From a virus (taxonomy: Duplodnaviria > Heunggongvirae > Uroviricota > Caudoviricetes): a stretch of DNA of 55,994 bases. Shown here piece after piece: positions 36,778-55,994 of this stretch. Position numbers and translations under genes: made by a program. Positions within the stretch are counted from its first letter, which is position 1. Each line of letters opens with the position of its first letter. The stretch lies in the IMG/VR virus record IMGVR_UViG_3300025009_000058. One strand, written 5' to 3'. Below the pieces are notes generated by a model. That model saw only the letters and a list, made by a program, of their open reading frames with translations, made no database searches and had not been told where the DNA came from.

Positions 36778-37329
36778 TTAAATACCAGGACCACATAAGC
36801 CGATAGGGCCACATAATCCTTCTGGACCACATAAACCGATTGGGCCACATAAACCTTCTGGACCACAAAGACCAATAGGGCCGCATAAGCCAGCAGGACC
36901 ACAAAGTCCAACAGTAGCATTTGTAGCAAACAACTTGCCAAGAGATTGTACATCAATAACTGCTTTAACAGTTGTTACTGAAACACCAACACTGCTTTCA
37001 AAGCAATGCATTAAGATGTTATCACCAGCTTTTTCAAGAGTACCACCAGCAGAAAGAGAAATTCCATCACCAATTGCAAAAGCTGCTGAATCAACAGTAG
37101 CTTCAACAATAGCTTTTCTCCAAACTGTAATTGGTGTTGTTTCATTAAGATTTGAACCTCTTTCGCAAACACCAACAAATGTTGCATCTTCTGCTTCAGC
37201 ATCAAGCTTAACAGCGTATCCTGATTCATAAGAAACAAGATCACCGTTAGCAATCACAGTAGCAGCTTCAACTGGGACAGAGATTAAATCAAATCTCTCA
37301 TCTCCAGGAATTCTGATTTTAACGTTCAT
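36778..37329 (-). CDS. capsid cement/decoration protein (DUF2190-like) with C-terminal Gly-Leu-Cys collagen stub
   Basis: Between the protease and capsid genes; IANGDLV...FVGVC...AIGD cement pattern; ends in (GLC-GPx)x7. Confidence 0.75.
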   Translation of the reverse strand: MNVKIRIPGDERFDLISVPVEAATVIANGDLVSYESGYAVKLDAEAEDATFVGVCERGSNLNETTPITVWRKAIVEATVDSAAFAIGDGISLSAGGTLEKAGDNILMHCFESSVGVSVTTVKAVIDVQSLGKLFATNATVGLCGPAGLCGPIGLCGPEGLCGPIGLCGPEGLCGPIGLCGPGI

Positions 37330-37378
37330 GTTACTTCTCCAATTAATTTATTATTATTTTTACAGCATTTGAAAAATT

Positions 37379-38536
37379 TTACTTCTTTTTGATGCCATTA
37401 GCAATGTCATCATCTGATAATTTAGGTTTAGTTTCTGAATCTGTTGCTGAGCCTGCTGCTGAGCCATTTTGAATAACAGAACCGGTAGTTAATGATTTTC
37501 TGTCTTCCAACATGTTTTTAACGATACCAATTTCTTTTTGAGCAAATAAAGTATCCTTAAACAAAGGTGTTACAAGACGCGAGTCAATTTGTGAGTTTGT
37601 GATTTCTGTTTCAACTTCGGTTTTCCAAGCATTCAACTGTTCAACAGCTTTATACTTATCAACTTCTGCAGTCAATTCAGTGTTTTTAGTTGTTAATGCA
37701 GTAACCGAATTTGTTAATTCTGTTACTTTTGCCGCTAAATCAGTCTTTTCAGATGTTAATGCAGTAACCGAATTTGTTAATTCTGTTACTTTCTGAGATG
37801 ATTGAGAAATAGCAGTCTCCTTTTCTTTTTTAGCAAGTTCAGCATTTACAATTTCTGCTACTAAAGTAGGATAGTTGGCAAGTAAATCTTGCGTAGATTT
37901 AATTTCCATCTTTAACTTCTCCTCTTGGTTTGATTGATTAGTTTGAAACTTATTTAATTTTTCCTGTACAATAGAATTATAGACTTGTAGAGCTTGACCA
38001 CCTGCTGCTCCATAAGACACAATATCTGTTGACTTGTAAGCATTAATACCTACAACTTTCATTCCAGTTCTATTCTGGGCTTCATCTTTATATTCTTGAC
38101 TGATTGCAGAGAAATGCATTGAGAATTGAACATCTTTTGCATTGCGCTTACATTCTTTATACAACCAGAATGTCTTTGGATTTGCTGTAAAGACAATGTC
38201 ACCAACGATTTTAGTTTTATCTTCATTGAGCTTTACATTCTCATAAGTAGCAGCCCATTCAAAAACATCTCTGCCCATATAAGCATATAAATCATGATTG
38301 ACATAAATCTTTGGTTTAGCCATTATAAATTCTAATATAATAGGCAAAACCTCTGTTGGAATATAAATATCATTTAAATTCCAACCAGCAGTAATAGCTT
38401 CTATCTTAGCACGTTTGGGACTATCTTCGTCACCATCATCTTCTGACATTGTAACTGATAAGCATATATCAAGTCTTTCTTTCTCATCAATTGCATCTGC
38501 CAGACCAATGTCTTTTGGATGTGTGCTTATAATCAT
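37379..38536 (-). CDS. prohead protease fused to coiled-coil scaffold
   Basis: AITAGWNLN, IYVNHD, QFSMH, DIVSYGAAGG protease-like motifs, followed by a heptad scaffold. Confidence 0.75.
   Translation of the reverse strand: MIISTHPKDIGLADAIDEKERLDICLSVTMSEDDGDEDSPKRAKIEAITAGWNLNDIYIPTEVLPIILEFIMAKPKIYVNHDLYAYMGRDVFEWAATYENVKLNEDKTKIVGDIVFTANPKTFWLYKECKRNAKDVQFSMHFSAISQEYKDEAQNRTGMKVVGINAYKSTDIVSYGAAGGQALQVYNSIVQEKLNKFQTNQSNQEEKLKMEIKSTQDLLANYPTLVAEIVNAELAKKEKETAISQSSQKVTELTNSVTALTSEKTDLAAKVTELTNSVTALTTKNTELTAEVDKYKAVEQLNAWKTEVETEITNSQIDSRLVTPLFKDTLFAQKEIGIVKNMLEDRKSLTTGSVIQNGSAAGSATDSETKPKLSDDDIANGIKKK
37691..37792. repeat. 39-bp direct repeat, 63-bp period, in the scaffold coiled coil
   Basis: TGTTAATGCAGTAACCGAATTTGTTAATTCTGTTACTTT at 37691-37729 and 37754-37792 (KVTELTNSVTALT x2). 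Confidence 0.9.
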
Positions 38537-53527: not shown

Positions 53528-53552
53528 ATTTTTTCCTTTATTTAGGTTTTTA

Positions 53553-55994
53553 TTATCCAATTGTTATAGTAGGTCTTTCATAGACCGCTAATGCTGATGT
53601 AGTTTTTGCAATTCCTAATTCTTGGTTCAAATTTCCAGCTGTAGTTGGTGGTGTAGATGTTACTCCACCCGCTGTACTTAAGAAATATATTGTACCTACT
53701 GTTAAACTTGTTAACTGGTCATTTAGTCCTGTTAGTTGATAAAATCCTCCACTATTTCCGCTTGTTACAGCCGTTAATACATAACCATGAGCAGGTTTAG
53801 TATTATCAGTATTATCTGCTTTACGCATATTAATTGTACCAGCATTTGAATAAAGATTAACAAAGTTTCCAGCTGCTAAAGTTTCTCCTGCTACAATTGT
53901 TATAGCATTTGTGCCACTTGGTCCGCATAAGCCAATAGGACCACAATTACCTGTTAAGCCACAAACTCCTTGAATTCCTTGTGAGCCTTGTGGACCACAA
54001 ACTCCTTGAATTCCTTGTGCTCCTTGAGGGCCACATAGGCCTTGAATTCCTTGAGCTCCTTGAGGGCCACAATTTCCTGTTACTCCTTGAATTCCTTGAG
54101 GGCCACAATTGCCTGTTAAGCCACAAACTCCTTGAATTCCCTGTGCTCCTTGAGGGCCACAATTACCTGTTAAGCCACAAACTCCTTGAATTCCCTGTGC
54201 TCCTTGAGGGCCACAATTGCCTGTTACACCTTGAATGCCTTGAGGGCCACAATTGCCTGTTACACCTTGAATGCCTTGAGGGCCACATAGGCCTTGAATT
54301 CCTTGAGCTCCTTGAGGGCCACATAGGCCTTGAATTCCTTGAGCTCCTTGAGGGCCACATAGGCCTTGAATTCCTTGAGCTCCTTGAGGGCCACAATTGC
54401 CTGTTAAGCCACAAACTCCTTGAATTCCCTGTGCTCCTTGAGGGCCACATAGGCCTTGAATTCCTTGAGCTCCTTGAGGGCCACATAGGCCTTGAATTCC
54501 CTGTGCTCCTTGAGGGCCACAATTTCCTGTTACTCCTTGAATTCCTTGAGGGCCACAATTGCCTGTTAAGCCACAAACTCCTTGAATTCCCTGTGCTCCT
54601 TGAGGGCCACAATTGCCTGTTACACCTTGAATGCCTTGAGGGCCACAATTGCCTGTTACACCTTGAATGCCTTGAGGGCCACAATTACCTGTTACACCTT
54701 GAATGCCTTGAGGGCCACATAGGCCTTGAATTCCTTGAGCTCCTTGAGGGCCACATAGGCCTTGAATTCCTTGAGCTCCTTGAGGGCCACATAGGCCTTG
54801 AATTCCCTGTGCTCCTTGAGGGCCACATAGGCCTTGAATTCCCTGTGCTCCTTGAGGGCCACATAGGCCTTGAATTCCTTGAGCTCCTTGAGGGCCACAT
54901 AGGCCTTGAATTCCTTGAGCTCCTTGAGGGCCACAATTTCCTGTTACTCCTTGAATTCCTTGAGGGCCACAATTGCCTGTTAAGCCACAAACTCCTTGAA
55001 TTCCCTGTGCTCCTTGAGGGCCACAATTACCTGTTAAGCCACAAACTCCTTGAATTCCCTGTGCTCCTTGAGGGCCACAATTGCCTGTTACACCTTGAAT
55101 GCCTTGAGGGCCACAATTGCCTGTTACACCTTGAATGCCTTGAGGGCCACATAGGCCTTGAATTCCTTGAGCTCCTTGAGGGCCACATAGGCCTTGAATT
55201 CCTTGAGCTCCTTGAGAGCCACATAGGCCTTGAATTCCTTGAGCTCCTTGAGGGCCACATAGGCCTTGAATTCCTTGAGCTCCTTGAGGGCCACAATTAC
55301 CTGTTAAGCCACAAACTCCTTGAATTCCTTGTGCTCCTTGAGGGCCACAATTGCCTGTTACACCTTGAATGCCTTGAGGACCACATAGGCCTTGAATTCC
55401 TTGAGTTCCTTGAGCTCCTTGAGGGCCACATAGGCCTTGAATTCCCTGTGCTCCTTGAAGGCCACATAGGCCTTGAATTCCCTGTGCTCCTTGAGGGCCA
55501 CAATTACCTGTTAAGCCACAAACTCCTTGAATTCCCTGTGCTCCTTGAGGGCCACAATTACCTGTTACACCTTGAATGCCTTGAGGGCCACATAGGCCTT
55601 GAATTCCTTGAGCTCCTTGAGGGCCACATAGGCCTTGAATTCCTTGAGCTCCTTGAGGGCCACATAGGCCTTGAATTCCCTGTGCTCCTTGAGGGCCACA
55701 ATTGCCTGTTACACCTTGAATGCCTTGAGGGCCACAATTACCTGTTACTCCTTGAATTCCTTGAGGGCCACAATTACCTGTTAAGCCGCATAAGCCGATA
55801 GGGCCACATAATCCTTGAATGCCTTGAATTCCTTGTGTGCCTTGAGCTCCACATAAGCCTTGAGGGCCACAATTACCTGTTACTCCTTGAATTCCTTGAG
55901 GGCCACAATTACCTGTTAAGCCGCATAAGCCGATAGGGCCACATAATCCTTGAATGCCTTGAATTCCTTGTGTGCCTTGAGCTCCACATAAGCC
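53553..55994 (-). CDS. giant Cys-collagen fibre with C-terminal cement/head-fibre-like domain, 5'-truncated (at least 813 aa)
   Basis: The frame of ORF 53553-53828 continues upstream through ...GPIGLCGPSGTNAITIVAGETLAAGNFVNLYSNAG and remains Gly-X-Y to the window edge (GGC TTA TGT = GLC at 55994). Confidence 0.85.
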   Translation of the reverse strand, partial: GLCGAQGTQGIQGIQGLCGPIGLCGLTGNCGPQGIQGVTGNCGPQGLCGAQGTQGIQGIQGLCGPIGLCGLTGNCGPQGIQGVTGNCGPQGIQGVTGNCGPQGAQGIQGLCGPQGAQGIQGLCGPQGAQGIQGLCGPQGIQGVTGNCGPQGAQGIQGVCGLTGNCGPQGAQGIQGLCGLQGAQGIQGLCGPQGAQGTQGIQGLCGPQGIQGVTGNCGPQGAQGIQGVCGLTGNCGPQGAQGIQGLCGPQGAQGIQGLCGSQGAQGIQGLCGPQGAQGIQGLCGPQGIQGVTGNCGPQGIQGVTGNCGPQGAQGIQGVCGLTGNCGPQGAQGIQGVCGLTGNCGPQGIQGVTGNCGPQGAQGIQGLCGPQGAQGIQGLCGPQGAQGIQGLCGPQGAQGIQGLCGPQGAQGIQGLCGPQGAQGIQGLCGPQGIQGVTGNCGPQGIQGVTGNCGPQGIQGVTGNCGPQGAQGIQGVCGLTGNCGPQGIQGVTGNCGPQGAQGIQGLCGPQGAQGIQGLCGPQGAQGIQGVCGLTGNCGPQGAQGIQGLCGPQGAQGIQGLCGPQGAQGIQGLCGPQGIQGVTGNCGPQGIQGVTGNCGPQGAQGIQGVCGLTGNCGPQGAQGIQGVCGLTGNCGPQGIQGVTGNCGPQGAQGIQGLCGPQGAQGIQGVCGPQGSQGIQGVCGLTGNCGPIGLCGPSGTNAITIVAGETLAAGNFVNLYSNAGTINMRKADNTDNTKPAHGYVLTAVTSGNSGGFYQLTGLNDQLTSLTVGTIYFLSTAGGVTSTPPTTAGNLNQELGIAKTTSALAVYERPTITIG
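53915..55994 (-). repeat. collagen-coding tandem repeat array (about 690 codons)
   Basis: Shuffled 36-bp (GPQGAQGIQGLC; GPQGIQGVTGNC) and 54-bp (GPQGAQGIQGVCGLTGNC) units; 135-bp-period repeat at 55781-55859 / 55916-55994. Confidence 0.9.

Follow-up and report, generated by a model that had tools for sequence, protein, structure and literature searches.

Gly-X-Cys collagen in three predicted virion surface proteins of an uncultivated tailed phage: a rare chemistry that may link neighbouring helices

We analysed a 55,994-nucleotide (nt) stretch of viral DNA (IMG/VR record IMGVR_UViG_3300025009_000058, Caudoviricetes; hereafter the window), which is part of the genome of an uncultivated tailed phage of about 121 kb and carries three collagen genes, all on the minus strand, whose products are referred to here as P0001, P0002 and P0003. 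The analysis strongly supports the view that all three products are virion surface proteins with collagen stalks, that two of them have decoration folds, and that their collagen displays cysteine at the outward-facing Y position of the Gly-X-Y triplet. This collagen chemistry is a real, rare and, in the literature searched, undescribed variant of phage collagen, whose function we infer below. An original prediction, made from the DNA alone, had proposed that three virion proteins share one unusual collagen chemistry with Cys almost exclusively at Y; the triplet composition bears this out, and the Cys counts given there for two of the proteins (7; 31 + 31) were reproduced exactly by translation and triplet counting.

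P0001 (36778-37329, minus strand) is a protein of 183 amino acids (aa) in which a globular domain of about 139 aa is followed by a collagen stub (36784..36909, minus) of 14 perfect triplets, (GLCGPx)7, with 7 Cys at Y. The second protein, P0002 (40263-44192, minus), is a 1309-aa fibre made up of an N domain (aa 1-186), a middle domain (aa 511-641, 131 aa) and a C domain (aa 963-1309, 347 aa); a collagen run of 108 triplets (42663..43634, minus) separates the N and middle domains, and a run of 107 triplets (41307..42269, minus) separates the middle and C domains, each run carrying 31 Cys at Y. P0003 (53553-55994, minus) has its 5' end cut by the end of the window, and its 813 visible residues comprise a collagen run of at least 232 triplets with 65 Cys at Y (53907..55994, minus), a perfect repeat that continues past the window end, followed by a C-terminal domain of 117 aa (aa 697-813; 53556..53906, minus) with a predicted capsid decoration fold.

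Triplet counts of the translations give 461 uninterrupted Gly-X-Y triplets over the three proteins, in which all 134 collagen Cys (7, 31 + 31 and 65) stand at Y and none at X, an outcome with a chance of 2^-134 if the choice between X and Y were random. Within the helix, successive Cys are 6, 9, 12 or 15 residues apart, with a single exception of 3 residues. Only four Cys lie outside the Gly-X-Y runs of the three proteins, and the flanks of the runs are not Cys-rich. The Y position is occupied by Gln (57%), Cys (29%) and Thr (7%), X is mostly Pro, Leu, Ile, Ala or Val, and charged residues are nearly absent from the runs. Cys thus accounts for 9.7% of collagen residues, as against 0.67% of the other 15,658 residues of the window's proteins; it makes up 0.25% of the major capsid protein, and the other virion proteins are likewise Cys-poor. 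The codons are ordinary (TGT 127, TGC 7), and recoding or a special tRNA was rejected as an explanation, given the plain codons, the normal use of Cys elsewhere and the lack of a tRNA gene in the window. With the standard triple-helix rise of 0.286 nm per residue, the computed lengths, if the runs are triple-helical, are about 12 nm for the P0001 stub and at least 199 nm for the P0003 stalk, with a computed thiol density of about 1 per nm along the helix.

We then compared this composition with that of other collagens, using as controls 118 near-length and 120 longer collagens that share the most words with P0003 in a database of 5.8 billion proteins. In the 47,771 triplets of these 238 controls, Cys occupies Y only three times. 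The near-length controls have Gln (43%) and Thr (26%) at Y, so that Cys takes the share of Thr, which falls to 7% in the phage collagens where Cys reaches 29%. Reviews name Thr as the leading Y residue in bacterial collagens (PMC8968730), and Cys is described as not present in normal collagen triple helices (PMC6039012). The comparison of X/Y frequencies therefore upholds the expectation that Gly-X-Cys is rare among phage and bacterial collagens, in which Thr and Gln dominate Y. The only Cys-rich matches in the 5.8-billion-protein set, P0011 and P0021, are the same gene (P0002) from other samples, and no longer Cys-bearing homologue of P0003 was found among the best matches in that set; every contig that could be placed breaks in the repeats of P0003 or P0002. 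Across 50,697 GenBank phage records, the best collagen matches fall below 60% identity, and the three that were inspected lack Cys. Full-text literature searches likewise returned no paper describing natural Gly-X-Cys collagens, nor a virion system built in this way, as the original prediction had supposed.

Because repeats of this kind are prone to misreading, the correctness of strand, frame and assembly deserves particular attention. A (GPQ)n collagen gives (GPC)n when its reverse complement is translated, which produces false Gly-Pro-Cys open reading frames (ORFs) in other contigs, and the window itself terminates within a repeat. In the window, however, each run is continuous in frame with non-repeat domains for which there are homologues or confident folds, and this fixes the frame; the neighbouring genes all lie on the same strand as the collagen genes, the opposite strand of the runs is not collagen-like, and the exact P0001 protein recurs on 26 contigs, the longest of 123.5 kb, and is listed in 39 assembly-index blocks. 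We have therefore rejected the reading in which an ordinary Gln/Thr collagen was translated in the wrong frame or strand, or misassembled, as exceedingly improbable. The collagen family PF01391 (gathering cut-off 27.2 bits) matches P0002 with 295 bits and P0003 with 335 bits, whereas the P0001 stub scores only 20.1 bits, under the cut-off, because the run is short.

Several lines of evidence strongly support P0001 as a predicted capsid decoration (cement) protein with a C-terminal collagen stub. Its gene ends 72 nt upstream of the major capsid gene (35515..36705, minus; PF25209 Phage_capsid_4, E 7e-17), and its homologues P0005 and P0007 carry PF09956 Phage_cement_2, although P0001 itself has no PF09956 match at E 0.01. 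An AF2 model (N domain predicted local distance difference test, pLDDT, of about 80) matches the decoration proteins of HFTV1, the Pam3 cement, the phi29 gp8.5 base, TW1, T1 and Sf11; in Foldseek the top seven PDB chains (HFTV1, Pam3 and the phi29 base) have E values of 1.9e-4 to 6e-4 and TMt of 0.53-0.69. The original call of a cement protein was thus sound. The modelling of trimers that the original prediction had proposed was carried out on P0001: three copies gave a trimer score of 0.76, compared with 0.00 for the best of three controls, with at least 93% contact agreement between runs and a partner pLDDT of at least 75, and residues 140-181 of all three copies lie in the modelled interface. 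This score passes a mark reached by 20 of 30 proteins solved as same-chain pairs and by 1 of 23 solved as single chains, counts that are only a rough guide to a three-copy model built on its own alignment. Since decoration trimers and collagen have already been solved, the pass may reflect likeness to known structures.

The C-terminal domain of P0003 was modelled by AF2 with a pLDDT of 94.9, and a VIA-align comparison with 48,161 PDB representatives returned phage capsid decoration proteins as all 13 of its best matches (Z 11.1-8.2; 105-119 of 124 residues aligned; root-mean-square deviation about 3 Å), in agreement with the decoration proteins on the Foldseek list. The family of this domain, with 2279 representatives, consists mostly of proteins of about 170 aa, the usual size of a decoration protein, and almost never carries collagen; PF09956 is matched by 1 of 35 members (E 0.008). 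The gene lies 16 kb from the major capsid gene. Because of this modelled decoration fold, P0003 is probably a head fibre anchored to the capsid rather than a tail fibre. What had been listed simply as a fibre of more than 813 aa ends in a second decoration-fold domain and so probably belongs to the head. Taken together, the models strongly support two arrangements of predicted fold and stalk: in P0001 the fold is N-terminal and is followed by a stub of about 12 nm, and in P0003 it is C-terminal and comes after a stalk of at least 200 nm.

The globular domains of P0002 returned no PHROG, Pfam or PDB sequence matches, and their ESM Atlas scores of 0.85 or lower provide leads only.

Comparison with relatives suggests how the three genes came to share one chemistry. 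In the closest relative (L267, cement 62% identical) the cement protein has no tail and no collagen, and the syntenic large fibre gene retains the same first ~15 residues and has no collagen at all; L389, a further relative, has at the position of P0003 a 227-aa protein that shares the C domain and is free of collagen. Furthermore, all seven P0001 homologues end just where the stub begins, and all lack it. Because the L267 and L389 counterparts lack collagen, the phage appears to have gained it on several proteins together. At the nucleotide level, the stub and P0002 share a 29-nt exact match, located at the very start of both P0002 run 1 and the stub, the stub and P0003 share a 28-nt exact match, and P0002 run 2 and P0003 have a 51-nt exact stretch in common. 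When the codons were resampled synonymously, with the peptide and the codon usage of the collagen preserved, 29 nt was reached in 0 of 500 trials and 28 nt in 3 of 500. These matches strongly support, at the level of sequence, a single collagen module, with Cys in the usual place of Thr, that spread among the three genes by intragenomic recombination among repeats, and this is the proximate cause of three proteins having one chemistry.

Each array consists of tandem repeats whose period is a multiple of 9 nt, and the number of repeats in P0002 differs among samples (52-108 and 72-107 triplets; the window, P0011, P0021 and L004 3453-7067), giving proteins of 1036, 1204, 1246 and 1309 aa. This length variation may be real repeat-number polymorphism or, in part, assembly collapse. 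Across these samples the Cys fraction is steady at 0.29 and identity within the globular domains does not drop below 99%, and the Y codons include 7 synonymous TGC as against 2 single-step non-synonymous neighbours of TGT. The constancy of the Cys fraction, the rarity of such neighbours and the recurrence of Y-only Cys elsewhere together argue for selection for Cys.

In L389 (8001-8684 of the 29-kb contig ERZ4902915), the gene order downstream is as in the window. The 227-aa protein there has a signal-like sequence at its N-terminus and a Cu_amine_oxidN1 domain, and it is 93% identical to P0003 over the last ~94 residues of the C domain, an arrangement that could reflect either natural domain shuffling or a chimeric assembly. 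Its Cu_amine_oxidN1 domain and YomF_N neighbours are a hint of a Firmicutes host.

To look beyond this phage, IMG/VR and genome contigs were scanned with DNA patterns; the counts from these scans are lower bounds and not frequencies. Genuine in-frame Gly-X-Cys collagens with Cys at Y only were identified in at least six other phage lineages, so that the phage-database search suggested by the original prediction shows the chemistry to recur and not to be unique to this phage. L105 has two such genes (Y-Cys in 47/134 and 17/47 triplets), L046 and L125 share an N-terminal motif with P0002 (34/76 and 52/115), L065 and L139 have a G+C fraction (GC) of 0.53-0.55 and repeats of the GFCGAT type (19/56 and 46/119), L130 has three tandem paralogues with Y-Cys, L390/L394 is one 210-kb contig with three ORFs (43/172, 30/114 and 15/61), and L182 (CAZTWZ010000001.1) is a 22-kb contig binned with a Candidatus Saccharibacteria metagenome-assembled genome (MAG; 42/94). 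At the loci with more than one collagen (the window, L105, L130 and L390/L394), 11 of 11 collagen ORFs carry Y-Cys. No non-collagen gene is common to the window and the seven other Gly-X-Cys loci compared (L390/L394 left out).

Many scan matches were false, being either GC-rich junk or reverse-complement (GPQ)n. At L063, L033, L039, L021, L040 and L045, a false (Gly-Pro-Cys)n is the reverse complement of (Gly-Pro-Gln)n read one base off-frame; since (GPQ)n gives an open but false (GPC)n, any census of Cys collagens must filter reverse-complement ORFs. An IMG/VR scan for (GLCGPx)2 gave three matches, all of them off-frame EAAGAA-type repeats, and a metagenome scan for (G-hydrophobic-C-G-x-x)3 was swamped by 9-nt microsatellites such as GVCGVC and was uninformative; both were set aside. 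Other layouts were also seen. In L144 (a Protochlamydia MAG), Gly-Pro-Cys is clustered at both helix ends, with some Cys at X and a signal-like hydrophobic N-terminus, and L234 and L257 have the same layout; in L174 (a Clostridium MAG) it runs along the helix as (GPCGPQGER)n, with Y-Cys in 21/83 triplets, and it also runs along the helix in L133, a giant-virus contig. The phage fibre P0021 (VI815_03035) is deposited under a 'Candidatus Nanoarchaeia archaeon' MAG on a 121-kb contig. The P0021 and L182 contigs are probably phage contigs binned with small low-GC genomes, the alternative being a true host link.

As to what the cysteines do, the reading we prefer, while holding it tentatively and at somewhat less than an even chance, is that thiols link separate helices once the virion has left the reducing cytoplasm. 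The decoration domains would trimerise and thereby nucleate the triple helix, a part played in other prokaryotic collagens by flanking trimerisation domains, and each helix would then show a regular row of about 1 thiol per nm on its surface. Virions would assemble in the cytoplasm with their thiols reduced, and after lysis disulfides or thiolate-metal bridges would form between neighbouring helices (stub-stub, stub-fibre or fibre-fibre) and not within one, so that the capsid would carry bundled fibres or a coat knitted together by covalent bonds. Neighbouring threefold sites in HK97-type capsid geometry are an estimated ~8 nm apart, so that 12-nm stubs could reach each other. Exposed Cys on collagen-mimetic helices are known to oxidise to inter-helix polymers and to aid surface adhesion (PMC3491313). 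The original suggestion that the Cys stabilise the helix without hydroxyproline is disfavoured by data on collagen I, where a Y-Cys (R780C) forms a same-level disulfide between two chains that leaves the helix about 0.5 °C less stable and slower to fold (PMC6039012), and by the fact that, with a single Cys per level, one of the three chains always lacks a partner (PMC7824840); the arrays are for these reasons unlikely to serve disulfide formation inside one helix. A more specific form of inter-helix linking, which we consider fairly unlikely, is a redox-cured external chainmail, in which decoration trimers would plant 12-nm and at least 200-nm thiol rods on the capsid that are inert in the reducing cytoplasm and oxidise after lysis into a covalent inter-helix disulfide net or into links from the virion to other surfaces.

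Several observations weigh against inter-helix linking. No gene for a thioredoxin, for DsbA, for an Erv-like or other thiol oxidase or for a small CxxC protein was seen in about 76 kb of the genome (the window and ~20 kb on its left side). In an anoxic habitat or host, moreover, the thiols would stay reduced. The capsid binding proposed for P0003 is drawn from its modelled fold, an hhalign comparison of the P0001 family with the P0003 C-domain family was not significant, and P0002 is without an assigned place on the virion. Finally, repeat amplification and gene conversion alone could explain the shared module.

This last point leads to an alternative that is less likely than linking, namely that Cys is simply a tolerated, Thr- or Ser-like Y residue in one repeat unit that was amplified and copied by gene conversion, leaving reduced thiols with no role. 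The tandem arrays with their 9-nt periodicity, the variation in repeat number between samples and the exact nucleotide stretches common to the three genes are all as expected on this account, and on the Persikov-Brodsky host-guest scale Cys at Y reportedly has a triple-helix propensity close to that of Thr. It sits poorly, however, with the occurrence of Y-only Cys in at least six unrelated phage lineages that differ in their X residues and span GC 0.30-0.55, with the near absence of Y-Cys from the control triplets, with the constant Cys fraction and few non-synonymous TGT neighbours, and with the avoidance of reactive Cys in the phage's other virion proteins.

The remaining alternatives assign the thiols a function other than linking, and we regard each of them as improbable. 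If the Cys were modification sites, for example for S-glycosylation by phage glycosyltransferases, they would parallel the O-glycosylated Thr of Gly-Pro-Thr collagens such as Bacillus BclA, and they do stand exactly at the usual Thr position. GT2-family S-glycosyltransferases exist (SunS, ThuS), a GT-A-like glycosyltransferase candidate (50008..50634, minus; phrog_1574 E 5.5e-18, LDAD motif, with weak matches to Anp1, DUF5672 and a glucosyltransferase PHROG) is encoded between the fibre genes, and immediately to the left of the window are genes for two large GT4 glycosyltransferases, one of which has a methyltransferase fused to it. Phage glycosyltransferases, however, act more often on DNA or host glycans, a collagen-free relative also has a glycosyltransferase in its structural module, and the independent Gly-X-Cys contigs have no accessory gene in common. 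To a similarly small degree of likelihood, the thiol rows could be adhesive, binding metals or sulfide minerals or exchanging disulfides with Cys-rich surfaces, and so serve virion retention and not strength. The display of about 1 thiol per nm over at least 200 nm of long, flexible, exposed rod would suit such a role, adhesion is generally assigned to head fibres and collagen-like capsid proteins (PMC7602432), and short collagen peptides needed Cys for surface adhesion (PMC3491313). Against this, a metal site within one helix is geometrically disallowed because Y side chains point outward, and the adhesive account is inference throughout.

One of the known systems closest to P0001 and P0003 is phi29 gp8.5, which also places a trimeric fibre on a decoration-fold base, sits at quasi-threefold sites of the capsid, is dispensable for stability and is thought to help adhesion (PMC7602432). 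For the N domain of P0001 as well as the C domain of P0003, the gp8.5 base (6qyy) ranks among the best structural matches. The phi29 fibre, however, is a helix-turn-helix supercoil without a Cys array, where the window encodes Gly-X-Y collagen, and its base is N-terminal, whereas that of P0003 is C-terminal. Gp12 of the Bacillus phage SPP1 is a very small protein. It resembles the present proteins as a trimeric collagen-like protein on a tailed-phage capsid (PMC7602432, citing Zairi et al. 2014). It binds hexamer centres and, unlike P0001 and P0003, has no decoration-fold domain. The collagens Scl1/2 and BclA and those of phage tail fibres share with the present ones Pro-poor Gly-X-Y, Gln at Y, flanking trimerisation domains and variation in repeat length, and differ from them in that here Y is 29% Cys and 7% Thr and charged residues are nearly absent.

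Disulfide-cured collagen assemblies are known from animals, in the C-terminal knot of collagen III, the minicollagens of Hydra, which polymerise the capsule wall (PMC2289959), and the cuticle collagens of nematodes. In these, Cys occurs in adjacent pairs or in Cys-rich domains outside the helix, whereas here it is single, inside the helix and spaced every 2-5 triplets, and neither the adjacent Cys pair nor the Cys-rich domain at a helix end that marks a cystine knot is found in the three phage proteins. In engineered collagen-mimetic peptides and recombinant bacterial collagens, oxidation of exposed thiols joins helices into polymers, and the thiols also favour adhesion to surfaces (PMC3491313, PMC8968730); these proteins and peptides are synthetic and usually have terminal Cys only, whereas the phage collagens are natural and have dozens of internal Y-Cys. 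Collagen-like phage fibres, phi29-type head fibres and the collagen-like capsid protein SPP1 gp12 were thus already known (PMC7602432). What appears to be new is a predicted triple helix with Cys as a major Y residue, recurring in phages and placed on putative capsid proteins of decoration fold.

Engineers add Cys by hand to make bacterial collagens cross-linkable, and phages have repeatedly built about one exposed thiol per nm. If the thiols cross-link, capsids would be reinforced, or made to adhere, on a new principle, and the proteins would offer a template for redox-curable collagen materials; a chainmail, if it exists, would be a natural thiol-curing collagen material and would add to HK97 isopeptides and cement proteins a new means of strengthening or anchoring phage heads. 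If the Cys are modified, S-linked protein modification would extend to virion collagens. Either way, Cys only at Y provides a simple signature for surveys, and the small 183-aa P0001 is open to direct study.

The phage itself encodes an HK97-type capsid protein, a tail tube, a lysis cassette and a family A polymerase, and its major capsid protein has no match in the 50,697 GenBank phage records; no relative of the phage turned up among deposited phages. Between the two big collagen genes, around the GT-A-like gene, lie three paralogues of about 315 aa (49063-49998, 50656-51594 and 51599-52573, all minus) with a ~45-residue repeat, IDYVTIATxGNAxDFGDL...GCSSxTRG, and 1.3-2.2% Cys; they are probably beta-propellers, and the block is kept in L389. 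In the region left of window position 1 (L387 1-2865 / L388 8136-12124), the GT4-type glycosyltransferases noted above have 622 aa, with an N-terminal methyltransferase, and 707 aa, and they are accompanied by genes for three DNA methyltransferases, a thymidylate synthase, a small PP-binding (carrier) protein and a dCMP deaminase. A gene located between that for lysozyme and P0002 (45446-45976, minus) encodes a basic 176-aa protein with short, irregular Gly-X-Y that lacks Cys and with weak matches to PF01391 and HNH_3. Finally, the lysis cassette includes a 155-aa PAS-domain protein (47323-47790, minus) in the company of a C92/NlpC-like amidase, holin/spanin-like genes and the lysozyme gene, an unusual setting for a sensor domain.

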